Source of the DNA: a virus | Strand: one strand, 5' to 3' | Virus genome (UHGV): UHGV-1694526 | Length of the DNA: 10,932 nucleotides | Shown here: piece after piece, positions 1-10,932 of the stretch | Position numbering within the stretch: the stretch's first letter is position 1 | How the letters are laid out: every line of letters starts with the position of its first letter | Position numbers and translations under genes: made by a program | Notes under the pieces: model-generated | What the model was told of the DNA's origin: nothing | Database searches by the model: none | The model's input: only the letters and a program-made list of their open reading frames with translations

Positions 1-1128
1 CTGTTAAGCGAGTCTATTTCAACCCTTCCGCTGAAAATATACGTTCGACAGCCTGACGGTTCGCGTAAAGCGGCAACCGACCACCCGGCTTATTCTGTAC
101 TGTGTCGCCGTCCCAATTCAGAAATGACTCCATCACGCTTTATGCTGATGGTGGTTGCCAGTATTTGCCTGCGCGGGAACGCCTTCATTGAGAAGAAATT
201 CATCGCAAATCGCCTGGTTTCGCTGGTGCCTTTGCTGCCGCAGAACATGGTGGTTAAACGTCTTACTACCGGGGCGCTGGAATACAAATACACTGAAAAC
301 AGTAACGAGCGCGTCATTCCCGTCAAAAACATCATGCACATTCGCGGGTTCGGCCTGGATGGCGTTTGCGGCATGATGCCGATGAAGACTGGCCGGGATG
401 TGATCGGTGCCGCGATGGCTGTTGAAGAATCTGCGGCAAAGATTTTTGAACAGGGGCTTCAGAGTTCAGGTTTTCTCTCCGCTGAAAATGCTCTCAGTGA
501 TGAACAACGTGAAAGGCTTCGCGGCTACATGGCTGCATTTACCGGCTCTAAAAATGCCGGAAAGATTATGGTACTTGAAGGCGGGTTAAAGTATCAGGGC
601 GTCACCATGAACCCTGAAGATGCCCAGATGCTGGAAAGCCGTTCTTTCAGTATTGAGGAAATTTGTCGCTGGTTTCGCGTGCCTCCTTTCATGGTCGGTC
701 ATACCACGAAACAAAGCAGCTGGGCATCCAGTCTTGAGGGGATGAACCTGCAGTTCCTGACGCATACCCTTCGACCGCTGCTGGTAAATATTGAGCAGGA
801 AATTGACCGGTGCTTACTCGACAGCGATGATGACGTGTTTGCAGAGTTCTCCGTTGAAGGTCTACTGCGAGCCGATAGTGCCGGTCGCGCGGCATACTAT
901 ACCAGCGCGCTTCAAAATGGCTGGATGTCCCGTAATGACGTTCGTCGTCTTGAGAACATGCCGCCAATTGAAGGGGGCGATATTTACACCGTTCAGCTCA
1001 ACCTGACGCAACTGAAAAATCTCGAAAGCAGCAATCCTGCTGTTCAGGCTCTGGCCCTGAGAGAACTGCATAACCACGTATTCCCCGATATTTCCTTTGA
1101 ACAATCTCCGCTGAAACAGGCCGCTTAG
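1..1128 (+). CDS. Phage portal protein (HK97-like family), 5'-partial; the frame is open from window position 1 and the ATG at 124 is internal
   Basis: Seen: frame-1 reading frame has no stop from nt 1 to TAA 1126-1128 (>375 codons). Synteny: directly upstream of a ClpP-like prohead protease and a capsid gene, the canonical portal-protease-capsid order. Family call is by recollection of portal C-terminal regions, not a search. Confidence 0.8.
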   Translation: MLSESISTLPLKIYVRQPDGSRKAATDHPAYSVLCRRPNSEMTPSRFMLMVVASICLRGNAFIEKKFIANRLVSLVPLLPQNMVVKRLTTGALEYKYTENSNERVIPVKNIMHIRGFGLDGVCGMMPMKTGRDVIGAAMAVEESAAKIFEQGLQSSGFLSAENALSDEQRERLRGYMAAFTGSKNAGKIMVLEGGLKYQGVTMNPEDAQMLESRSFSIEEICRWFRVPPFMVGHTTKQSSWASSLEGMNLQFLTHTLRPLLVNIEQEIDRCLLDSDDDVFAEFSVEGLLRADSAGRAAYYTSALQNGWMSRNDVRRLENMPPIEGGDIYTVQLNLTQLKNLESSNPAVQALALRELHNHVFPDISFEQSPLKQAA

Positions 1129-1141
1129 GAGCACTTTCCTG

Positions 1142-1996
1142 ATGAGCAAAAAAAAACTTCCGGTAGCACCGGCGGGTCGCCCATGCGCGCGCGTTACCTG
1201 TGAAACATTACCGTCCGCACTGGACCGCTGGGACGGCGGGATCAAAGCGGCGGCCACCGACGATAACAGTATTTCTGTTTTTGATGTTATCGGGCAGGAC
1301 TACTGGGGCGAAGGGGTAACAGCTAAACGTATTGCTGGTGCGCTTCGGGCTATGAACGGCGCCGACGTCACGGTGAATATCAACTCACCTGGCGGCGACA
1401 TGTTCGAAGGTCTGGCTATTTATAACCTGCTCCGCGAATACGAAGGCCGTGTCACGGTGAAGGTGCTGGGCATTGCCGCCAGCGCCGCCTCGATAATTGC
1501 GATGGCCGGGGATGATATTCAGATTGGCCGCGGTGCCTTCCTGATGATCCACAACTGCTGGGTATATGCGATGGGAAACCGCCATGATTTTGCAGAACTG
1601 GCACAGTCACTGGAACCCTTCGATACCGCTATGGCTGACATCTACGCGGCGCGCTCCGGCCTTGATATGGTAGCCGTTCAGAAACTGATGGACGCCGAGA
1701 GTTATATCGGTGGCAGTGACGCTGTGGCGAAGGGACTGGCAGACAGCCTGCTTTCTGCTGATGCAGTCAGTGATGGCGATGAATCACCTGCGGCCGCGAT
1801 TCGCAAACTTGATGCGCTGCTGGCTAAAACCAACACCCCGCGCTCTGAGCGCAGAAAACTCATTAAAGCCTTATCCGGGAGCAAGCCAGGCGCTGCTTCT
1901 GACCAAAAAGGCACGCCGAGCGCTGCCACCATCGAAAACGAAACCATTGACCGACTGGAAGCCGCACTCAGCGGCCTGAAAGCGGCTGCCCAGTAA
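1142..1996 (+). CDS. Prohead (head maturation) serine protease, ClpP/S14-like, with an Ala/Lys/Ser-rich C-terminal extension
   Basis: Seen: 284-aa ORF with ClpP-like motifs NSPGGD, GIAASAAS (Ser nucleophile context) and MIHN (His). Synteny: sits between portal and capsid genes. SD AGGAG lies upstream of ATG 1142. Confidence 0.8.
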   Translation: MSKKKLPVAPAGRPCARVTCETLPSALDRWDGGIKAAATDDNSISVFDVIGQDYWGEGVTAKRIAGALRAMNGADVTVNINSPGGDMFEGLAIYNLLREYEGRVTVKVLGIAASAASIIAMAGDDIQIGRGAFLMIHNCWVYAMGNRHDFAELAQSLEPFDTAMADIYAARSGLDMVAVQKLMDAESYIGGSDAVAKGLADSLLSADAVSDGDESPAAAIRKLDALLAKTNTPRSERRKLIKALSGSKPGAASDQKGTPSAATIENETIDRLEAALSGLKAAAQ

Positions 1997-2008
1997 AACG
2001 GAGATATT

Positions 2009-3229
2009 ATGTCTGATGTAAATGAGATCCTGAAAAAAGTCAGCGCCAGCATTGAAGAGGCGACCGGAAAATTCAACGCGAAAGCAGAAGACGCACTCAA
2101 AGAGGCGCAGAAGTCAGGCAGGCTGTCAGAAGAAACAAAAGCTGCCGTTGATAAAATGGCTTCTGAGTTCAATGCGCTGCGTGAAGCTGAAAAAACCCTG
2201 AAGGCCGCAATGGGCGAACTGGAGCAACATGTTGCCCAGATGCCGCTGGCCAACGCTGCAAAGGTGATCGAGACCGTTGGCCAGACCGTCATCAGCAGCG
2301 AAGCACTGAAAGCATTCGCGGCAAGCGTGGAAGGCGGTAAGCGCGTCAGCGTACCGGTGAACGCCGCGCTTATTTCCACGGATGTCGTCACCGGCGTGGT
2401 TGAACCGCAGCGTCTGCCGGGTATCGACACCGCACCGAAACAGCGCCTTTTCATCCGCGATCTGATCGCGCCTGGCCGCACCTCAGCACCGGCCATCTTC
2501 TGGGTGCAGCAAACCGGCTTCACCAATGCGGCGAAAGTTGTGCCGGAAGGCACCGCCAAGCCGTACAGCGATATCCAGTTCGCCACGCAGATCACGCCGG
2601 TCACCACCATCGCGCACATGTTCAAGGCGTCCAAACAGATTCTGGATGACTTCGCGCAGCTGCAGTCCACTATCGACGCCGAGATGCGTTACGGACTGAA
2701 GTATGTGGAAGAACAGGAAATTCTCTTTGGCGACGGTACCGGTGCGCACCTGAAAGGCATCGTTCCGCAGGCCTCGGCATACGATGCTGCGTTCGCCGTA
2801 GAACAACAGAACGGCATCGACGATCTGCGCCTCGCAATGCTGCAGGCTCAGCTGGCACGCTTCCCGGCTTCCGGCCACGTCCTGCACTTCATCGACTGGG
2901 CGAAGATTGAACTCACCAAAGACACGCTGGGCCGCTATATCCTGGCGAACCCAGCGACCCTGACTGGCCCTACCCTTTGGGGCCTGCCGGTGGTAGCAAC
3001 CGAAGCCGCAGCATTCCAGGGCAAGTTCCTGACCGGTGCATTCAACGCTGCGGCACAGCTGTTTGACCGTGAAGACGCCAACGTGGTGATCTCCACTGAG
3101 AACGCCGACGACTTTGAGAAAAACATGATCTCGATTCGCTGCGAAGAGCGTCTGGCCCTGGCGGTGAAACGCCCTGAAGCGTTCATCTACGGCTCCTTCA
3201 CTGCGCCTGCAGCAGGTGGCGGCGCGTAA
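2009..3229 (+). CDS. Major capsid protein, HK97 fold, with an N-terminal coiled-coil delta (scaffolding-like) domain
   Basis: Seen: 406-aa ORF with GGAG SD; the first ~100 aa are K/E/A-rich and helical. Position immediately after the prohead protease and size/composition are typical of HK97-family capsid proteins. No separate scaffold gene is present. Confidence 0.8.
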   Translation: MSDVNEILKKVSASIEEATGKFNAKAEDALKEAQKSGRLSEETKAAVDKMASEFNALREAEKTLKAAMGELEQHVAQMPLANAAKVIETVGQTVISSEALKAFAASVEGGKRVSVPVNAALISTDVVTGVVEPQRLPGIDTAPKQRLFIRDLIAPGRTSAPAIFWVQQTGFTNAAKVVPEGTAKPYSDIQFATQITPVTTIAHMFKASKQILDDFAQLQSTIDAEMRYGLKYVEEQEILFGDGTGAHLKGIVPQASAYDAAFAVEQQNGIDDLRLAMLQAQLARFPASGHVLHFIDWAKIELTKDTLGRYILANPATLTGPTLWGLPVVATEAAAFQGKFLTGAFNAAAQLFDREDANVVISTENADDFEKNMISIRCEERLALAVKRPEAFIYGSFTAPAAGGGA

Positions 3230-3238
3230 TCCTTAACG

Positions 3239-3254
3239 GCGGCCTGCGGGCCGC
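3239..3254 (+). promoter_or_regulatory. GC stem-loop (GCGGCC-TGCG-GGCCGC) followed by TTT, 10 nt downstream of the capsid stop
   Basis: Seen: perfect 6-bp inverted repeat with a 4-nt loop and a short T run. Could be an attenuator or mRNA-stabilising hairpin after the highly expressed capsid gene. Confidence 0.3.
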
Positions 3255-3270
3255 TTTCACAGGTGGGAAA

Positions 3271-3483
3271 ATGAAACTGATCGCACTCAAACCGATTTAT
3301 TTCGGCGGTACCGTCGTTACTGAAGGGCTTCCGCTGGAAACTCTGGAACAGCACGGGCGCGAGCTCATCAAGAAAGGTTATGCGAAGCTCGAAGAATCAG
3401 AAAATCCTGCAAAGCAGGAACAGCAGCAGGAACAGCAGCAGGAACAGCCGGAATTAAAAGCGGAAAAGAAGGCGAAAAAATAA
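3271..3483 (+). CDS. Hypothetical small protein (70 aa) with a QEQQ repeat and Lys-rich C-terminus
   Basis: Seen: ORF with a GGTGGG SD-like sequence upstream; its stop overlaps the next start (TAATG at 3481-3485), consistent with translational coupling into the connector gene. Function unknown. Confidence 0.45.
   Translation: MKLIALKPIYFGGTVVTEGLPLETLEQHGRELIKKGYAKLEESENPAKQEQQQEQQQEQPELKAEKKAKK
3415..3447 (+). repeat. In-frame 12-nt tandem repeat (CAGCAGCAGGAA x2 perfect, with partial flanking copies) encoding QEQQQEQQQEQ
   Basis: Seen directly in the sequence at 3415-3450. Confidence 0.7.
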
Positions 3484-3809
3484 TGGTCGATCTTGATGTG
3501 GTGAAACAGCACTGCCGCATTGATACCGATTTTTCCGGAGACGATGCCCTGCTGACTTTATACACCGGTGCGGCGGAGCGTTACGTCCAGACATGGACAA
3601 GGCGAACGCTCTATGAAAACCAAAGCTCCCCTGGCTACGCAGACGACCAGGACCCGATTCTACTGAATGATGATGTTAAAGCGGCCATGTTATTGCTGAT
3701 AGGTCACTGGTATGCCAACAGAGAATCAGTTGCCGTCGGTCAGACCGTTGCAGAGGTCCCGTTTGCAGTTGAAGCGTTGCTGCAGCCGTATCGAATTTAC
3801 GGGGTGTAA
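3483..3809 (+). CDS. Head-tail connector (gp6-like) protein
   Basis: Seen: 108-aa ORF. N-terminal pattern (VKQHCRIDTDFSGDDALLTLYTGAAERYV) matches the gp6-like head-tail connector family as I recall it; position after the capsid gene fits. Confidence 0.7.
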   Translation: MVDLDVVKQHCRIDTDFSGDDALLTLYTGAAERYVQTWTRRTLYENQSSPGYADDQDPILLNDDVKAAMLLLIGHWYANRESVAVGQTVAEVPFAVEALLQPYRIYGV

Positions 3810-3872
3810 TTATGTCTTGTTCTGGATGCGCGCAACGGCGCGAGTGGATAAAAAAGTGGGCAAAAATAGCTT

Positions 3873-4070
3873 ATGAACGAGCAACTGGTAAACGAACTGA
3901 TAGCAGTGATACGGGAACAAATCACAGCGCAGAGGGAGCAGACGGAAGCGATAAGCCGTCTGGCTGAATCAAATATGGCGCTTTGCGATATCATTATCCA
4001 GTCGCTGGCTGGTGAACTAGATGAAACTGCAGAGCAACAAACCTATCTGAGCGGTAAACCCAGGGGGTAA
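3873..4070 (+). CDS. Hypothetical small helical protein (65 aa)
   Basis: Seen: ORF whose stop is 1 nt before the next ATG (4072), with AGGGGG as SD for the downstream gene. Its own SD is weak or distant. It overlaps a 51-codon ORF (3812-3967) in another frame that has the better SD. Confidence 0.4.
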   Translation: MNEQLVNELIAVIREQITAQREQTEAISRLAESNMALCDIIIQSLAGELDETAEQQTYLSGKPRG

Positions 4071-4071
4071 C

Positions 4072-4404
4072 ATGCAGGCCGGGAAATTGTGCCACAGGAT
4101 TACTCTGCAGGAGCCAGTAAAAGTGCAGAACCCGACAACGGGAGCCGTAATTAATGCCTGGCGAGATGTTGCGACTGTCTGGGCCGAAGTTTCACCATTG
4201 TCAGCACGTGAATTTATTGCTGCGCAGGCTTCTCAGGGTGAAATAACCACCCGTATTGTTATTCGCTACCGTGCCGGAGTTACCAGAAAACATCGCATCT
4301 TGTTTCGTGGTGCTGTGTATAACATCCATGGTGTTCTGCCCGATCCAAAAAGCGGACGTGAATACCTGACGCTTCCCTGTTCTGAGGGTGTTAATGATGG
4401 CTGA
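4072..4404 (+). CDS. Head closure / head-tail joining protein
   Basis: Seen: 110-aa ORF. Motif layout (HRITLQ...W..V..VWAEV.PLS.RE...AQ......ITTRIVIRYR) matches phage head-tail joining proteins as I recall them; synteny supports it. Confidence 0.7.
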   Translation: MQAGKLCHRITLQEPVKVQNPTTGAVINAWRDVATVWAEVSPLSAREFIAAQASQGEITTRIVIRYRAGVTRKHRILFRGAVYNIHGVLPDPKSGREYLTLPCSEGVNDG

Positions 4405-4931
4405 TAGTGTTGAGGTAAGTCTTACCGGGCTTGAATCACTTCTTGGGAAAATGGAGGCCGTATCAGAAGTCACCCGTAATAAAGCCGGTCGGTTTGCATT
4501 GCGTAAGGCGGCAAACATTAGAAGGGATCGGGCCAGACGCGTCACGCGTTGATGATCCTCTGACTAAAGAAGCAATCCACAAAAATATCGTCGCCAGCTT
4601 CAGCAGCAAGCAATTCCGCAGGACAGGTGATCTGGCATTCCGTGTCGGGGTAATGGGCGGTGCCAGGCAGTATGCAAATACAAAGGCAAACGTCAGAAAA
4701 GGCAGAGCGGGTAAAACATACAAAACCTCAGGAGATAAAGGCAATCCAGGAGGAGATACCTGGTACTGGCGTTTTCTTGAGTTTGGTACTGAGCACACAT
4801 CAGCGCGGCCTATCCTCCGACCTGCAATGAACGGCGTAGATAATGACGTGATTAATGTTTTTTCTACGGAAATGGGAAAGGCTATTGATCGCGCTATCAG
4901 GCTGGCCACGAAGAAAGGAACCACTGCATGA
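4394..4931 (+). pseudogene. HK97 gp10-like tail component gene, apparently split by a frameshift (N-terminus in one frame to TGA 4550-4552, C-terminus in another to TGA 4929-4931)
   Basis: Seen: ATG 4394/4397 with a GAGG SD opens a frame reading MADSVEVSLTGLESLLGKMEAVSEVTRNKAGRFALRKAANIRRDRARRVTR*. A second frame, open from 4398, becomes protein-like only from about 4540 (ASRVDDPLTKEAIHK...YWRFLEFGTEHTSARPILRPA...) and has no credible start of its own. The ORF-track start at 4431 is a TTG with a nonsense-looking N-terminus. Confidence 0.5.
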
Positions 4932-5293
4932 TTGCCCCTATTTTTTCTGTTTGCGCGTCGAGTCATGAAGTCACTGACTTACTCGGAAGCAATCCGGTAA
5001 GAATTTATCCTTTCGGAATTCAGGACGACAACGTGGTCTATCCCTATGTGGTCTGGCAGAACATCACCGGTTCTCCAGAGAACTACATTGCCCAGCGCCC
5101 TGACGCAGACTTTTTCACGCTGCAGGTGGATGCATATGCCGACACCGTGGATGAAGTGATTGCCGTGGCTACTGCGCTGCGGGATGCCATTGAGCCGCAC
5201 GCGCATATCACGCGCTGGGGCGGACAGGAAAGAGACCCCGAAACAAAGCGCTATCGCTACTCATTCGATGTTGACTGGATAGTCACTCGATAA
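4928..5293 (+). CDS. Putative tail completion / tail terminator-like protein (DUF3168-like)
   Basis: Seen: 121-aa ORF starting in an ATGA overlap with the upstream stop. The RIYP...VYPYVVW pattern and position just upstream of the major tail gene support the call. Family assignment is from memory. Confidence 0.55.
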   Translation: MIAPIFSVCASSHEVTDLLGSNPVRIYPFGIQDDNVVYPYVVWQNITGSPENYIAQRPDADFFTLQVDAYADTVDEVIAVATALRDAIEPHAHITRWGGQERDPETKRYRYSFDVDWIVTR

Positions 5294-5308
5294 ACGTATT
5301 ATTCAACC

Positions 5309-5331
5309 ACCGGCCTTGAGCCGGTTTTTTT
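5309..5331 (+). terminator. Intrinsic-terminator-like hairpin (ACCGGC-CTTGA-GCCGGT) followed by T7
   Basis: Seen: GC stem 5310-5314 / 5320-5324 with a 5-nt loop, then seven T (5325-5331), in the 54-nt gap between the tail-completion and major-tail genes. Confidence 0.5.
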
Positions 5332-5347
5332 ATGACCGGAGATAACA

Positions 5348-5848
5348 ATGTCTGTATTGACGCAAGGTACGCAGCTCTTTGTGCTCGTAAAAGGCGAGGT
5401 GAGCGAAGTTGAATGTATCACTGCATTTTCACCCGGCAGCAATCCGGCTGACCAGATTGAAGACACCTGTCTTTCTGAACGCTTTGATCGCAGCTATAAG
5501 CGTGGTCTTCGAACGCCTGGCACAGCATCACTGACGCTTAACGCTGATCCTAAAAATACCAGCCACATCATGCTCTACAACCTGTCCATTTCGGACGACG
5601 AAGAGGATCAGGACCTGACCTTCGCGATTGGATGGTCAGACGGAACCGCATCGCCAACTGCGGCTGAAAATGGTGCATCCGGTGCAGTCGATGGCCTGGT
5701 GCTACCTGATAGCCGCACATGGTTCGTATTCAAAGGCTATGTGTCCGACTTCCCGTTTGATTTTGCAGCAAACACGGTTGTTTCTACTTCTGCATCTATC
5801 CAGCGCTCCGGCTCTGCTGTATGGGTGCCAAAAGTCGTGACCCCATAA
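5348..5848 (+). CDS. Major tail (tube) protein
   Basis: Seen: 166-aa ORF with GGAG SD 6 nt upstream. Called mainly by synteny (immediately upstream of the G/GT chaperone pair and tape measure) and by a size typical of siphovirus tube proteins. Confidence 0.6.
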
Positions 5849-5852
5849 AATC

Positions 5853-5868
5853 AGGGCGGCAACGCCCT
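5853..5868 (+). promoter_or_regulatory. Stem-loop AGGGCG-GCAA-CGCCCT just after the major tail gene stop
   Basis: Seen: perfect 6-bp inverted repeat with a GNRA-type loop, followed by an AT-rich stretch and the SD of the next gene. Confidence 0.3.
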
Positions 5869-5886
5869 TATTAATCAGGATTAATA

Positions 5887-6372
5887 ATGAAATTAACACT
5901 TGATGCACTCAAGGAGTCCGGCGCGTTTACCGGTCGCCCGGTTGAGAAAGAAATCACCTGGACGCAAGGCGATAAAAAAATCACCGCGACCGTGTATGTT
6001 CGCCCGATGGGTTATCACACAGCAACGTCCGATGTGCTGGCTTTTGGTGGTAAGGTCGATGGTGTGGCAGGGCGTATCGCCGCATCCATCTGCGATGAAC
6101 ATGGTAAACCCATCTTCACCCCGGCTGACATTACTGGTGAGGCAGATCCTGAACGTGGTGCACTGGATGGCGGCCTGACGGTAGCACTGCTTCTGGCCAT
6201 TCAGGAAGTTAACGATCTGGGAAAGACTTCGAGCTCAGCGCCGAAGACGAATTCTGGTGCGAGCTCGTCCTCAACGGAATCGGAGGCAGAACAATCGCCG
6301 AAGCGCGGGAAGTCCTCTCATTCAAAGAGTCCCAACTCTGGGCAAAGTACCGGGAACGATACGGGAGTCTGA
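5887..6372 (+). CDS. G: Tail assembly chaperone, gpG-like (zero-frame product)
   Basis: Seen: 161-aa ORF directly upstream of the tape measure, containing the heptamer GGGAAAG (6219-6225) with zero-frame codons GGA AAG. The C-terminal zero-frame tail is Ser-rich and low complexity. Confidence 0.8.
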   Translation: MKLTLDALKESGAFTGRPVEKEITWTQGDKKITATVYVRPMGYHTATSDVLAFGGKVDGVAGRIAASICDEHGKPIFTPADITGEADPERGALDGGLTVALLLAIQEVNDLGKTSSSAPKTNSGASSSSTESEAEQSPKRGKSSHSKSPNSGQSTGNDTGV

Positions 6373-6548
6373 ACCCTATGTTGCGGGTTGAGTGGGGTGC
6401 CGGGCTGGTGAGCAGCATGATAGCCAACGTTAACAGAGACCCCAAGCGCCCACCATTCAACCCGACCGATTTCACACTTCACTTTACCAAAGTCAAAGCT
6501 GCTGATGGACCAATCTCATTAGAGGAAGCCAGAGCCAGCTGGACATAA
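5887..6548 (+). CDS. Tail assembly chaperone frameshift fusion, gpGT-like (-1 ribosomal frameshift at 6219-6225; about 220 aa)
   Basis: Seen: the -1 frame is open from the slippery site to TAA 6546-6548 and encodes a protein-like domain (DFELSAEDEFWCELVLNGIGGRTIAEAREV...) with no start codon of its own, ending 20 nt before the tape measure ATG. Established: this G/GT arrangement is conserved in long-tailed phages. Confidence 0.7.
6219..6225 (+). promoter_or_regulatory. -1 programmed ribosomal frameshift slippery heptamer G GGA AAG
   Basis: Seen: exact X XXY YYZ heptamer in the correct phase within the gpG-like ORF; identical to the heptamer known from lambda G/GT. Confidence 0.75.
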
Positions 6549-6567
6549 TGCCGCCAACGGAGAGTTT

Positions 6568-8988
6568 ATGGCTTCCAAATCACTGGGCACGCTGACGATC
6601 GACCTGATTGCCAAAGTGGGCGGTTTTGTCTCAGGCCTCTCGCAGGCTGAGCGAGCTTCACAAAAATGGCGTAAGCAGGTAAAGGAGGATGCCGCTGCCG
6701 CTGCAGCTGCCATGACCGGATTCGCAACAGCAGTCGGGGCTGCAGCCATCGGAGCCGGAGTGGCGGGGTATAACCTGCTCAAAACCACTTCACGTCAGAT
6801 TACCGAATCAGACCGCTGGGCAAAGTCACTTAACATGTCCACGCAGTCCCTGTTAGCCTGGCAATATGCTGCAGAAAAAGCAGGTGTTTCCGGCGATCAG
6901 ATGGCCGATATCTTTAAAGATGTCGGAGACAAAATCGGTGATGCCGTTCTTAATAAATCTGGTGAGGCGGTCGGTGCGCTGGACGCTCTGGGTTTGTCGG
7001 CTAAGAAACTGGCCGGAGAATCTCCCGACAAGCAACTCCTGGCTATCAGCGACGCACTGGAGAAAGTTAAGTCCAACGCCGAGAAGACTACCATCCTGGA
7101 GAGTCTGGGTAATGACCTGTCAAAGATGCTGCCGCTCCTGGACAATGGCAGTGAAAAGCTGCGTCAGTATATGGATGCCGCGAAGAAGTTTGGTGTGGCG
7201 CCCGATGACGCAGATATTGAAAAGCTGGTCAGAGTCAACGCCCTGTTTGAGGATATGGAGACGCAGGTCAACGGCGTCAAAATTGAACTTGCTGCAGGGC
7301 TCGCCAGCGTAGATTTGAGTGGGCTCCAGAAGTCTATTGGAGATATGGGGGATGTATTTAAAGACCCGGCTGTTATTCAGGGTCTGACTGATCTGGTTGG
7401 TGGGGTAGTGGACCTTGCCACCTGGCTGGTAAGGGTAGGAGCCGAGGCCGGAAAGCTGATAGACCAGTACAAAGGTGGGAGTTCGGTCGGCCTGAATGCC
7501 TCCATTCCAGAAATTGAACGGCGCATCAAGAACCTGAATGCAGATCTCGATGATAAAGGCATACTGGCGAGTTTCAACAGAATAGGTATGGACGTATCCG
7601 GTAAGGAGGCCGAAAGGGCTGAGCTCCAGAGGCGACTGGCCTTTTTGAGAAACTCCCAATCTACTCTACCGGAAATAAAACTGCCCGAGCCAGTCAAAAC
7701 AAACTATACCCTTGGCGCCGGGGAAACAAACGGTAAGCCGCAAAAAAATACCTCTGGTCAGAAACTGGATTCAGCGTTTAAAAGCGCTGAGCGCAGTTAC
7801 ATGCGTCAGATTGAGCTGATCGATACCACCGGCAAAAAAACTGCTGTGGTGACCGAGCAGCAAAAACTGCAGTTCGATATAGCTGACGGCAAGTTGCAGG
7901 GGCTTAACGAAACCCAGAAGAAACGACTTGCGTCTCTGGCTCAGGAAGTTGATCGCCTTAATGCCGTCAAAAAAGCTAATGAAGAAAACGCGAAGGTAGC
8001 GGCGTTCGTGGCAAATCTGCAGGAGCAGAACGAGAATGCACGTGCAGATTTGGGCGTGGATATTCAGGGGGCCGGACTCGGTGACAAGCAGCGTGAAAGG
8101 CTGAGGGAAAGGCTGAGTATAGAGCGCAGTTATCTCGATCAGCAGCGCGATCTGCAAAAGCAGTATCAGTCAGGAGATATCAGCCAGACAGTTTATGACC
8201 GCGAAACCCAGGCATTAAAGGATGCGCAAGCTGAGAGGCTGGGCATCCAGGAGGATTATTACAGTCAAATTGATGCGCTGCAGTCTGACTGGGTGACTGG
8301 CGCCAGAGACGGTCTCGCTGACTGGGTAGATGATTCAACTAACTATGCGACGCTGGCGGCGGACGCTATGAAAAGCGCGCTTTCCGGTATCAGCAGCAAT
8401 ATCGTCGACATGCTCAACGGCAATAAAGCGAGCTGGAAAGACTGGGGTGTCAGTGTTCTGAAAATCATCGAACAGGTGATGGTTAACATGATGATCGCCA
8501 ATGCAGCCAGCTCGATAGGCTCATTGTTCGGTGGTGCCGCATCGTCTTCCGCCAGCAGCGGTACTGCGATTCAGTCCTACGGGGCGAGCCTGCAATTCAA
8601 CGCCAAAGGCGGCGTTTACTCTTCTGCCGATCTCAGTCAGTACAGTAACTCTGTCGTCAGCTCTCCAACACTGTTTGCCTTTGCCAAAGGGGCCGGATTG
8701 ATGGGGGAGGCTGGGCCGGAGGCTATTATGCCACTGACCCGCGCCGCTGACGGATCGCTGGGCGTGCGTGCTATGGGAATCTCAGGCTTAACACCGGGTG
8801 GTAGTAGTGCTCCTCAGGTCAGTATTCAGATTGATGGCAATGGGAATACCCAGACTCAGGCTAGCGGTGGATATGAGCAATTCGGGCGGGAGGTAGGTAG
8901 TTTTGTTGATCGGCGATACCGCGAGTTGATAGGCCGTGACCTTTCACCCGGTGGCGCGGTCTGGAATCTGGCAAAAGGAGGGCGGTGA
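6568..8988 (+). CDS. H: Tail tape measure protein (806 aa)
   Basis: Seen: very long ORF with GGAG SD, directly after the G/GT pair, with a helical K/E/Q-rich middle and a hydrophobic Gly/Ala/Ser-rich C-terminal region (LFAFAKGAGLMGEAGPEAIMPL...) resembling the lambda gpH C-terminus as I recall it. Confidence 0.9.
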   Translation: MASKSLGTLTIDLIAKVGGFVSGLSQAERASQKWRKQVKEDAAAAAAAMTGFATAVGAAAIGAGVAGYNLLKTTSRQITESDRWAKSLNMSTQSLLAWQYAAEKAGVSGDQMADIFKDVGDKIGDAVLNKSGEAVGALDALGLSAKKLAGESPDKQLLAISDALEKVKSNAEKTTILESLGNDLSKMLPLLDNGSEKLRQYMDAAKKFGVAPDDADIEKLVRVNALFEDMETQVNGVKIELAAGLASVDLSGLQKSIGDMGDVFKDPAVIQGLTDLVGGVVDLATWLVRVGAEAGKLIDQYKGGSSVGLNASIPEIERRIKNLNADLDDKGILASFNRIGMDVSGKEAERAELQRRLAFLRNSQSTLPEIKLPEPVKTNYTLGAGETNGKPQKNTSGQKLDSAFKSAERSYMRQIELIDTTGKKTAVVTEQQKLQFDIADGKLQGLNETQKKRLASLAQEVDRLNAVKKANEENAKVAAFVANLQEQNENARADLGVDIQGAGLGDKQRERLRERLSIERSYLDQQRDLQKQYQSGDISQTVYDRETQALKDAQAERLGIQEDYYSQIDALQSDWVTGARDGLADWVDDSTNYATLAADAMKSALSGISSNIVDMLNGNKASWKDWGVSVLKIIEQVMVNMMIANAASSIGSLFGGAASSSASSGTAIQSYGASLQFNAKGGVYSSADLSQYSNSVVSSPTLFAFAKGAGLMGEAGPEAIMPLTRAADGSLGVRAMGISGLTPGGSSAPQVSIQIDGNGNTQTQASGGYEQFGREVGSFVDRRYRELIGRDLSPGGAVWNLAKGGR

Positions 8989-9326
8989 TGGCTATAGAAA
9001 CATTCAGCTGGTGTCCGCGCCCGAACGCGGAGCAGGAAGTGACATTCCGACGGCGCACCGCGCAGTTCGGTGACGGATATCAGCAGGTTTCCGGCGACGG
9101 GATTAATCCCCGCTCGCAGAAATGGACTCTCCAGTTTACCGGTACCGAAACGTATATCGGGGCGATTAAAGACTTTCTCGATCGCCATGCGGGCGTGACG
9201 GCGTTTCAGTGGCGCCCGCCGCTTGAGCCTCTCGGGCTTTACCGCTGCGACACCTACACACCAACGCCACTTGGTGCCGGGTTATTTAATCTTTCTGCAA
9301 CTTTTGAACAGGCCTACAAACCATGA
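8988..9326 (+). CDS. M: Minor tail protein M (lambda gpM-like)
   Basis: Seen: 112-aa ORF from ATG 8988 with AAAGGAGGG SD, overlapping the tape measure stop (TGATG). Contains the FGDGYQQ and FQWRPP motifs and a FEQ C-terminus, matching lambda gpM as recalled. The ORF track begins at GTG 8985; ATG 8988 is preferred. Confidence 0.85.
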   Translation: MAIETFSWCPRPNAEQEVTFRRRTAQFGDGYQQVSGDGINPRSQKWTLQFTGTETYIGAIKDFLDRHAGVTAFQWRPPLEPLGLYRCDTYTPTPLGAGLFNLSATFEQAYKP

Positions 9327-10078
9327 GTCTTAACGCAGATTTTCAGAAGCTCGAACCTGGCGATGTGGTCAGGCTTTTCGAAGTGGATGGCACGGCATTT
9401 GGTACAGGTGATGTGCTGCGATTTCACAGCTACAGTCTTGCGCACTCTGAAGCCGAAATTATCGCTGCTGGCGGTGATGAAAATAAACTGCCAGCAAAAT
9501 CTATCTGGTGGCAGGGTGAGGAGTATAAAGCGTGGCCATGCCAGATTGAGGGGATCGAAGCTTCAACCTCGGGAAGTAGTGCCCAGCCAAAACTTTCGGT
9601 TGCTAACCTCGACAGTTCGATCACCGCGCTTTGCCTGGCTTACGACGATATGCTGCAGGCGAAGGTGACGATACATGACACCCTTGGTAAGTATCTCGAT
9701 GCGAGAAACTTCACCGGAGGCAATCCGACAGCCGATCCGACCCAGGAGAAGCTGAAGGTTTTCTACATCGATGCAAAGAGCAGTGAAACCAATGAAGTTG
9801 TTGAGTTCACACTATCCAGCCCTATGGATCTGCAGGGGCTGATGATACCTACCCGCCAGCTTCATTCCCTGTGTACCTGGTGCATCCGGAATAAATATCG
9901 TACCGGCGACGGATGCGACTATGCCGGCACCCGCTATTTCGATAAAAACAACAACCCGGTAAGCGATCCGTCGCTGGATGAATGCAATGGCACGCTGACG
10001 GCCTGCAAACTCCGATTCGGCGAAAATAACGAACTCTCGTTTGGTGGCTTCCCGGGCACGTCTTTGATCAGGAGTTGA
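9323..10078 (+). CDS. L: Minor tail protein L (lambda gpL-like) with a C-terminal cysteine cluster
   Basis: Seen: 251-aa ORF starting in an ATGA overlap with the M stop. C-terminal Cys pattern CTWC...GCDY...DECNG...TACK. Synteny M-L-K. Confidence 0.85.
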   Translation: MSLNADFQKLEPGDVVRLFEVDGTAFGTGDVLRFHSYSLAHSEAEIIAAGGDENKLPAKSIWWQGEEYKAWPCQIEGIEASTSGSSAQPKLSVANLDSSITALCLAYDDMLQAKVTIHDTLGKYLDARNFTGGNPTADPTQEKLKVFYIDAKSSETNEVVEFTLSSPMDLQGLMIPTRQLHSLCTWCIRNKYRTGDGCDYAGTRYFDKNNNPVSDPSLDECNGTLTACKLRFGENNELSFGGFPGTSLIRS

Positions 10079-10079
10079 T

Positions 10080-10790
10080 ATGCGTCAGAAAACCATCGAT
10101 GCGATTATGGCGCATGCTGCAGCTGAATATCCTCGTGAGTGTTGCGGCGTGGTGGCGCAAAAGAGCCGGGTAGAGAAATATTTTCCATGTAGTAACCTCG
10201 CTACCGAGCCGACAGAACATTTTCACCTGTCGCCAGAAGACTATGCAGCTGCTGAGGACTGGGGTACGGTGATCGCCATCGTTCACAGTCACCCTGACGC
10301 CACTACGCAGCCGAGCGAACTGGATAAAGCGCAATGCGACGCAACGCTTTTACCCTGGCATATTGTGAGCTGGCCGGAGGGGGATTTACGCACCATCCAG
10401 CCGCGCGGAGAACTGCCGCTGCTGGAGCGTCCGTTTGTGCTTGGACACTTCGACTGCTGGGGGCTGGTAATGAGCTATTTCCGGCAAACGCATGGTATCG
10501 AGCTCCACGATTACCGGGTGGATTATCCCTGGTGGGAAAACGACTATCCGGACAACTTCTATCAGGATTGCTGGTATGAGTGCGGATTCCGTGAATTCGA
10601 CGGGCCACCGAAACCCGGCGATATGGTGATCATGCAGGTCCAGGCTGATAAGTGGAATCACGCGGGAATCCTGCTGGAGGGCAATATGCTGCTGCACCAC
10701 CTGTATGGACATCTGAGCCAGCGTGTGCCGTATGGTGGCTACTGGCAGGAAAGGACGATGAAGGTTCTACGTTACAAATCTCTGTGCTAA
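10080..10790 (+). CDS. K: Tail assembly protein K (lambda gpK-like): N-terminal MPN/JAMM domain plus C-terminal NlpC/P60 domain
   Basis: Seen: 236-aa ORF with GGAG SD. JAMM motif H-S-H-x7-S-x2-D (HSHPDATTQPSELD) with upstream Glu (EYPRECCGVV); NlpC/P60-type Cys (HFDCWGLV) and His (WNHAGILL). Confidence 0.85.
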   Translation: MRQKTIDAIMAHAAAEYPRECCGVVAQKSRVEKYFPCSNLATEPTEHFHLSPEDYAAAEDWGTVIAIVHSHPDATTQPSELDKAQCDATLLPWHIVSWPEGDLRTIQPRGELPLLERPFVLGHFDCWGLVMSYFRQTHGIELHDYRVDYPWWENDYPDNFYQDCWYECGFREFDGPPKPGDMVIMQVQADKWNHAGILLEGNMLLHHLYGHLSQRVPYGGYWQERTMKVLRYKSLC

Positions 10791-10819
10791 CCTTTTGTAA
10801 AACCAAAGGGGATAGGGAT

Positions 10820-10932
10820 ATGAAAAGAATTTTAGTTTTTACCTCCATCTTAATGGTTGCCGGTTGTGCAACTAAGCCGGTGACAAATGAACAAGCACAG
10901 GATGTTCCTGCAAAACAGGTTATCAGCAATAC
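10820..10932 (+). CDS. Putative lipoprotein, 3'-partial (runs off the window end); likely accessory cargo gene (moron)
   Basis: Seen: ATG 10820 preceded by AAGGGG; N-terminus MKRILVFTSILMVAGCATKP has a basic n-region, hydrophobic h-region and lipobox V-A-G-C with Ala at +2. By hand count about 40% GC over 113 nt, visibly lower than the flanking structural genes. Confidence 0.5.
   Translation, partial: MKRILVFTSILMVAGCATKPVTNEQAQDVPAKQVISN

Follow-up and report, generated by a model that had tools for sequence, protein, structure and literature searches.

In phage lambda, gene I directly follows the tail-tip gene K. The stretch of phage DNA analyzed here (10,932 nucleotides, hereafter the window) ends a short distance past K, within an open reading frame (ORF) that was originally predicted, from the letters alone, to encode a low-GC lipoprotein inserted where lambda-type synteny expects gene I, with Cor, Llp and Bor as candidate models for its role. 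The locus raises two questions: is this gene a part of the tail or a passenger of the tail module, and what would an outer-membrane lipoprotein encoded at this position do? With regard to identity and anatomy, we are close to certain that the ORF at 10820 represents the beginning of an accessory (“moron”-type) gene of 137 codons that belongs to the PHROG 890 family. An exclusion function is the role that we favor for its product, with a probability that we put somewhat below one half, and the best overall explanation, in which identity and exclusion are blended, is held here at about even strength.

The window comprises a head-tail module that encodes the portal, protease, capsid, connectors, tube, G/T chaperones, tape measure, M, L and K. 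Positions 1-10768 are 96.6% identical to coliphage mEp235, and the part from 3821 on is 98-99% identical to HK022, HK140 and mEpX2; on the strength of these identities, the window can be assigned to an HK022-type lambdoid phage (Hendrixvirinae).

The reading frame downstream of gene K

The stop codon of K (TAA, 10788-10790) is separated by 29 nt from the ATG at 10820, and the frame that begins there remains open up to the end of the window at 10932 (Table 1). The original prediction had the gene start at 10791; positions 10791-10819 are spacer, and the ORF occupies 10820-10932, the translation of which (MKRILVFTSILMVAGCATKPVTNEQAQDVPAKQVISN) comprises the 37 codons that had been counted and 2 additional nucleotides. 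In relatives, K is annotated as “minor tail protein K” or “C40 family peptidase”, and its Klebsiella orthologue contains the Pfam domains Prok-JAB and NLPC_P60.

Table 1. Features around the 3′ end of K and the beginning of the lipoprotein gene (window positions)
Feature	Position	Strand	Basis and remarks
Tail-tip gene K, JAB/MPN and NlpC/P60 C40 peptidase	10080..10790	+	ORF list; upstream boundary of the cargo slot
K-to-cargo spacer, 29 nt, ACCTTTTGTAAAACCAAAGGGGATAGGGAT	10791..10819	+	purine-rich, plausible Shine-Dalgarno sequence AAAGGGGATAGGGAT
5′ edge of the mobile cassette, 18 nt, ACCAAAGGGGATAGGGAT	10802..10819	+	start of megablast match; junction alignment
Signal peptide, codons 1-15, and Cys16	10820..10867	+	translation; Cys16 codon at 10865-10867
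Lipobox V13-A14-G15-C16	10856-10867	+	translation
Mature protein, first 21 codons and 2 nt	10868..10932	+	conserved segment ATKPVxNxxAxxVPxxQ, predicted to pack on the beta-sandwich (AlphaFold2)

The N-terminus consists of the n-region MKR, the 10-residue hydrophobic core ILVFTSILMV and a lipobox, V-A-G-C16, that agrees with the pattern [LVI][ASTVI][GAS]C and is followed by Ala at +2. All elements of a bacterial lipoprotein signal (charged n-region, hydrophobic h-region and lipobox) are present, and the original reading of an ORF with such a signal behind K is borne out, Shine-Dalgarno sequence included; the Pfam model LPAM_1 scores 15.2 bits on residues 1-17, under its cut-off of 20. The composition is as distinct as had been claimed from an estimate of about 40% GC: the value for 10820-10932 is 0.402, compared to 0.534 for the remainder of the window and 0.547 for K, and the lowest value among the 112-nt windows of 1-10790 is 0.420. 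The full-length gene of the relatives has a GC content of 0.44 and a GC3 of 0.41, the latter compared to 0.61 for K.

On the opposite strand, a 99-aa ORF with a TTG start (window 10630-10929, minus strand) overlaps the 3′ end of K and the 5′ end of the lipoprotein gene; there is no evidence to support it, and it was rejected as spurious. A search of the window against Rfam found no RNA family. A scan for consensus sigma-70 promoters across 10400-10932, which covers the 3′ end of K and the spacer, returned 0 sites, a result that weak promoters would escape; the best candidate by eye, GTTACA (10771-10776) combined with TGTAAA or TAAAAC, is too weak a match to be called a promoter.

Because the promoter scan was empty and the gene lies 29 nt behind K in a late operon, on the same strand as the tail genes, it has to be considered that the lipoprotein is a helper of the lytic cycle. 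Expressed from the late operon only, it would either mask envelope sites so that progeny is not lost to debris, or modulate the outer membrane at lysis. The conserved upstream edge of the cassette, just 18 nt long, and the recurrence of the family in late tail operons fit this picture, and the gene may be transcribed only within the late tail operon. Evidence to the contrary comes from the anatomy of the junction and from the distribution of the family (see below), and also from the position of the gene, which is neither in nor near the lysis cassette; on balance, a purely lytic role appears unlikely.

The complete gene is available from close relatives. Positions 10802-10932 of the window (131 nt) are 100% identical to a gene of an E. 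coli prophage (NZ_LR536431.1), the product of which, WP_024262609.1, is a 137-aa “hypothetical protein”. An exact-pattern scan of IMG/VR retrieved ten viral contigs, which are 98-100% identical at the nucleotide level over the visible part and in all of which the 137-aa ORF is uninterrupted. Given the identity to an annotated prophage gene and ten contigs with a complete ORF, the frame at 10820 does not exist by chance; a stop codon shortly past the window, for which the original prediction had allowed, is found in none of the 11 relatives.

The direct junction of K and the lipoprotein gene that is seen in the window recurs in four of the contigs (L023, L025, L028 and L030), all four with the full ORF; the contig closest to the window is L030, with 98.8% identity over 7.9 kb. 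The other six contigs and the E. coli copy have a gene for a KilA-N domain protein between K and the lipoprotein gene. The exact upstream match is 18 nt long in 7 of the 11 related loci (six IMG/VR contigs and the E. coli locus, L003) and, since these 18 nt stay with the gene even when KilA-N rather than K is upstream, they mark the 5′ edge of the cassette. Past the lipoprotein stop, nine of the ten contigs and the E. coli prophage copy contain AACCTCGC-TCAG-GCGGGGTT and a T-run, and gene I (196 aa) follows, with its ribosome-binding site (RBS), 58 nt past that stop.

Several of these records show peculiarities of their own. L030 (IMGVR_UViG_3300045988_078236) deviates in the last codon of the lipoprotein, with PTAL where the other relatives have PTAF, and its sequence stops 51 nt past the gene, a stretch that contains neither the hairpin nor gene I; an artefact of the contig end or a rearrangement may account for this divergence. 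The RefSeq coding sequence of the mEp390 lipoprotein (L010 1465-1911, NC_019721.1) starts 36 nt 5′ of the conserved ATG, overlapping the K stop, and is probably mis-called. Also annotated in NC_019721.1 is a sigma-70-like promoter that is directed at gene I and lies within the lipoprotein gene, at its 3′ end. The KilA-N gene, found in most relatives (L003 5421-5930, also L022, L024, L027, L031 and L041), has a terminator-like hairpin of its own on its 5′ side, after K; the window is without this insertion.

The K-I junction of HK022-type phages

The expectation that gene I should stand directly behind K is valid for lambda and fails for the HK022 lineage: the K-I junction is filled in every relative of this lineage that was examined, with gene I next in each case. 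In HK022 and mEp235 the slot is taken by gp20 (74 aa, with a single transmembrane helix at the N-terminus), which is annotated as “moron gene product” in HK022 and followed by an annotated terminator in the mEp235 record. HK140 and the QL57EC prophage encode a 113-aa lipoprotein of PHROG 914 at the same place, and CharmingMan, mEp390 and Fostie a 136-aa lipoprotein of PHROG 890; the mEpX2 record has a “hypothetical protein” after K. The relatives carry three unrelated envelope cargoes at this junction and, given that KilA-N and the lipoprotein can both reside between K and I, the slot can hold two cargo genes.

This arrangement bears on the possibility that the ORF serves tail structure or assembly, be it as an atypical gpI or as some other part of the tail tip, or that it is spurious, a reading in favor of which only the position inside the tail-tip gene block can be adduced. 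The lipoprotein signal exports the product from the cytoplasm, where tails assemble, and for that reason is incompatible with a cytoplasmic assembly role; the protein has no Pfam match to Lambda_tail_I, and a normal 196-aa gene I is present 58 nt downstream in the relatives, which disposes of gpI. Moreover, sister phages whose tail genes, K included, are 92-99% identical have unrelated genes at K-I, and the family of the window lipoprotein is conserved in 108 clusters at 90% identity. A structural or spurious nature can be given practically no chance; the lipoprotein is cargo, not a tail component. The original prediction had said as much, denying any resemblance to the gpI N-terminus, and the full-length ORF, non-structural and placed in a slot with interchangeable content, agrees with it.

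The window, HK140, QL57EC, CharmingMan and mEp390 are near-identical across the K end and the spacer, up to and including ATGAAAA, and split just past the start codon (junction alignment). The last ~20 nt of K and the spacer are common to HK140, mEp390, CharmingMan and the QL57EC prophage, so that the spacer is identical in phages with a different lipoprotein. Each type of cargo at K-I is followed by its own GC-rich hairpin and T-run and then by the gene I ribosome-binding site, and the GC content of all the cargo genes is low (0.39-0.44). The terminator-like hairpin after each cargo suggests transcription by a polymerase without antitermination modification, which speaks against expression confined to the lytic cycle.

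The definition of a moron by Juhala et al. (2000), as summarised in PMC3594210, includes an own promoter. The anatomy of the K-I slot matches the moron as it is presented in that summary: there is extra DNA at a conserved gene junction by comparison with related genomes, its GC content is unlike that of the flanking genes (0.40 for the visible part and 0.44 for the full gene vs 0.54 for K), and there is an own terminator in the relatives, the hairpin site being located beyond the end of the window. The classical moron has its own promoter, whereas the scan of the window cassette showed none. The likeness to HK022 gp20 and the morons of HK97 and HK022 extends to the K-I junction, the lineage, the low GC content, the own hairpin with T-run and the envelope-targeted product; the difference is that gp20 is an unrelated 74-aa protein with a single transmembrane segment and the window gene encodes a lipoprotein.

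A comparison of the non-homologous lipoproteins of HK140 (PHROG 914) and CharmingMan (PHROG 890) locates the joint between cassettes. Among the first 51 coding nucleotides (L001 3741-3791 and L002 3741-3791, corresponding to window 10820-10870), which encode the signal peptide through the Cys codon, 47 match, compared to 25 of the following 69; hence the recombination joint is at the lipobox. The common DNA of the K end, the RBS and the signal peptide may be a homology arm for cassette swapping.

Gene I itself, beyond the window end, has a GC content of 0.47-0.49 and a GC3 of 0.37-0.44, compared to 0.54 and 0.61, respectively, for K (L003 6491-7081, L028 7954-8544), so the compositional break at the K stop runs on through I. 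The 196-aa type of gene I goes with the PHROG 890 cargo and the 202-aa type with gp20 or PHROG 914, the two types being 65-72% identical; cargo and gene I may be inherited together.

The PHROG 890 family and its distribution

The window copy covers residues 1-37 only, and both the length of 137 aa and the family match come from the relatives: the full-length protein that is identical over the visible bases matches the PHROG 890 “lipoprotein” HMM with an E-value of 2.1e-51 (residues 1-137 on profile positions 1-136 of 136). Members such as HK639 gp16 (YP_004934046.1), mEp390 gp17 (YP_007112434.1) and WP_024262609.1 share its size, lipobox, two conserved cysteines and C-terminal PTAF, with no difference at the sequence level; they differ in placement, directly after K for the window copy, behind KilA-N for the E. 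coli RefSeq copy, and between H and M for the HK639 copy. The 108 clusters of homologues at 90% identity are named “hypothetical protein” or “lipoprotein”, and a profile search (E≤1e-3) collects 1561 clusters at 50% identity, nearly all of 130-150 aa and single-domain. Cys16 is invariant in 52 aligned homologues, and the invariant or near-invariant positions comprise, besides the lipobox Cys, K52-R53-D54-x-G56, C62, C101, G103, E107, R121-x-G-Y-G and the C-terminal P-T-A-F; C62 and C101 likely form a disulfide.

Searches of the protein against Pfam and NCBIfam gave only sub-threshold lipobox or signal-peptide matches (LPAM_1 alone for Pfam at E≤1), PADLOC returned nothing for it, and a sequence-profile search of the PDB yielded 0 matches at E≤10. 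The Pfam family DUF2846 (PF11008), which likewise consists of small, lipoprotein-type proteins with a predicted beta-sandwich, is matched by 25 of 119 distant family members (E≤0.01, best 1.3e-7), whereas the protein itself and its close relatives have no match to it even at E≤1. The connection would be a remote superfamily relation only and, DUF2846 being without known function, adds no mechanism. An AlphaFold2 model of an 88% identical member (P0003), built on a 50-sequence alignment (pLDDT 90.4, pTM 0.83), is an 8-stranded, transthyretin-like beta-sandwich; with a pLDDT of ~95 across residues 21-50, the segment after the Cys is packed in the model and leaves little tether. The predicted fold is generic and points to no function, and a literature search on the PHROG 890/DUF2846 lipoprotein family found no functional study.

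The family occupies a variety of niches. At the K-I junction, PHROG 890 is present in E. coli, in Klebsiella prophages, with a Klebsiella pneumoniae prophage variant (P0029) listed in 1326 index blocks, and in one Pseudomonas phage, the tail tip of which is of the lambda type. The homologue in this phage, vB_Pae_CF127a (MK510973.1; L019 3501-3905), was detected at 28% identity (tblastn E-value 2e-6); the deposited record has no coding sequence in the K-I interval that holds it. In HK639 and Enterobacter prophages the gene is located between the tape measure and M, and in a Yersinia prophage (L016) it separates T from the tape measure, at the junction that houses the gp15 exclusion moron in HK97; in the window, this junction (6548-6568) is only ~20 nt long and empty.

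Outside of tail modules, PHROG 890 genes are stand-alone in SSU5-like Klebsiella phage-plasmids, are carried by small Vibrio integrative elements, and lie beside an Mrr-type nuclease in a satellite-like Prim-Pol/DUF3987 element. In the H20-like phages of Vibrio anguillarum, the gene is 15 nt downstream of a cI-like repressor gene, on the same strand, and is followed by a canonical terminator, a position analogous to that of lambda rexAB. In Vibrio phage Her (L020 3314-4450), the cI-like repressor gene, the 15-nt gap with an RBS, the lipoprotein gene and the terminator apparently make up a single operon, the strongest contextual hint of expression of the family in lysogens; in at least one phage group, the family appears to be wired for lysogen expression. 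Both this cI-lipoprotein-terminator operon and the carriage of the family by phage-plasmids and integrative elements, at a distance from late genes, are at odds with a helper expressed only from the late operon.

A species-level genome scan traced the family from Enterobacterales to Nitrosospira, Geomonas, Gallionella and Jiella. Housekeeping genes adjoin some of the distant members, which counts against the exclusion reading. A census of 72 flanking proteins from 12 non-tail loci revealed no recurring partner. Given the many types of elements and the lack of a recurring neighbor, the family can be regarded as self-sufficient mobile cargo.

Candidate functions of the lipoprotein

Under the established rules, the product would be exported by the Sec pathway, lipidated at Cys16 (Lgt/Lsp) and sorted to the outer membrane by the Lol system; by the +2 rule of E. 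coli, a residue other than Asp at this position, here Ala, directs a lipoprotein to the outer membrane. The mature protein of ~120 residues would be a compact 8-stranded transthyretin/DUF2846-like beta-sandwich, probably with a periplasmic Cys62-Cys101 disulfide; as there is almost no flexible tether, the predicted domain would sit against the membrane. Its gene forms a low-GC cassette at the K-I junction that consists of the RBS, the ORF and an intrinsic-terminator-like hairpin. Judging by the genomic context, the lipoprotein would be made from the prophage and would act alone at the envelope as a factor of lysogenic conversion, most likely one that excludes incoming phages at a step that is independent of the receptor-binding domain of the carrier phage.

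This last qualification separates the favored reading from the model first suggested for the protein, namely a receptor-matched blocker that, like Cor (FhuA) and T5 Llp, inactivates the outer-membrane receptor of the phage's own J protein, thereby excluding related phages and sparing the progeny from debris. There is an obvious resemblance to Cor (of HK022, phi80 and N15) and to T5 Llp, all small phage-encoded outer-membrane lipoproteins, which makes some exclusion role of the window protein plausible. The protein is encoded inside a tail module, and the short tether would put the predicted domain at the membrane face. In the mEpimmI coliphages, furthermore, lipoproteins of the structural clusters have been shown experimentally to exclude phages that use the same receptor (PMC11893012); for an exclusion role of the window lipoprotein, this is a precedent by analogy rather than by homology.

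Several observations argue against receptor matching. In six prophages with at least 98% identical lipoproteins, the first 800 residues of J are 92-100% identical and the last 200 only 19-76%, that is, nearly the same lipoprotein goes with at least three classes of J C-termini. In addition, homologues of Cor that are 56-58% identical to HK022 Cor are encoded in two carriers of the K-I lipoprotein (L022 8667-8897 and L029 3467-3631, raw orientation); the one in L022 is located just downstream of J and two small ORFs of the tail-fibre region, which is the usual place of cor. Whether Cor follows J type could be traced only in part, since several loci break off shortly past J. In small siphoviruses, the genes of receptor-matched exclusion factors are as a rule located at the receptor-binding locus (PMC11990801). 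A member of the Cor family would be expected past J and the tail-fibre genes, in linkage with the receptor-binding module, and HK022 has its Cor at this post-J site; a member of the T5 Llp family should likewise adjoin the gene for the receptor-binding protein. The window gene, by contrast, lies upstream of I and of the J N-terminus, away from the receptor-binding end of J.

The product, moreover, is about twice the size of Cor, and the mature domain lacks homology to it: in hhalign, the family profile aligns with HK022 Cor over 18 signal-peptide columns only (probability 45%). The invariant residues are kept from Vibrio and Pseudomonas to Geomonas, unlike those of fast-evolving receptor binders. 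The variety of J C-termini and the coexistence with Cor argue against a receptor-matched blocker, which we consider improbable; a general, envelope-level form of exclusion is plausible all the same. What is left of the originally proposed receptor-blocking role, as far as comparative data can tell, would be a broader superinfection exclusion.

Other comparisons also break down at the signal peptide. Bor and Iss resemble the window protein in being prophage outer-membrane lipoproteins, and also in the signal peptide and in a short tether at the N-terminus; the hhalign alignment with lambda Bor, however, is limited to 39 N-terminal columns that correspond to the signal peptide and the short tether, the protein has no match to Pfam Lambda_Bor, and bor adjoins the lysis genes whereas the window gene is in the tail module. 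With the PHROG 914 lipoprotein of HK140, the signal peptide alone aligns in a profile comparison. A PHROG scan at E≤0.1 retrieved only phrog_890 and one match confined to the signal peptide. A match to the spanin family phrog_812 (E-value 0.036) was obtained for the CharmingMan homologue only and covers residues 1-52, essentially the signal peptide and tether, which further weakens a role at lysis. An o-spanin (Rz1-like) was ruled out by the length of 137 aa, the predicted beta-sandwich and the location in the tail module. At the level of sequence, the protein is not homologous to Cor, Bor or gpI, and the analogies with Cor and Bor drawn at the outset do not extend to family membership.

A benefit to the host that is unrelated to phages, of the kind provided by Bor/Iss or TraT (serum resistance, tolerance of envelope stress, adhesion), would be compatible with a prophage-borne outer-membrane lipoprotein that is very common in Klebsiella pneumoniae prophages and, in Vibrio phage Her, has an operon position of the lysogen type. 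The conserved charged residues suggest a conserved ligand, and such highly conserved residues could equally serve a role in host physiology. Yet the homology to Bor stops at the signal peptide and tether, the carriers include free-living environmental bacteria (Nitrosospira, Geomonas, Gallionella) for which serum resistance is meaningless, and both the recurrence in tail modules and the satellite-like element beside an Mrr nuclease suit phage-phage conflict better. A host-fitness or virulence lipoprotein is, in our assessment, an explanation of low probability, and exclusion of incoming phages is the reading that we prefer.

A more far-reaching proposal, which we regard as rather doubtful at present, is that the PHROG 890/DUF2846-like lipoproteins constitute a widespread single-gene, receptor-independent envelope defence of phages, satellites and phage-plasmids across Proteobacteria, which might, for example, keep the tail tip from penetrating, or DNA from passing, at the inner face of the outer membrane via the invariant K-R-D/E/R surface. 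If this is the case, the K-I, T-H and H-M tail junctions would be hotspots of exchangeable exclusion genes, with the exchange occurring by recombination within the common RBS and signal-peptide DNA. The gene in the window is an already known, ordinary feature: the sequence can be found in RefSeq and IMG/VR, PHROGs includes the family, and the slot was described along with HK022 in 2000. What value it retains lies in drawing attention to a very common, mobile and functionally uncharacterised family that encompasses ~1,560 clusters at 50% identity. Should receptor-independent exclusion prove true, these lipoproteins would represent a new class of envelope defence, with consequences for predicting the host range of therapeutic phages against Klebsiella and E. 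coli lysogens.
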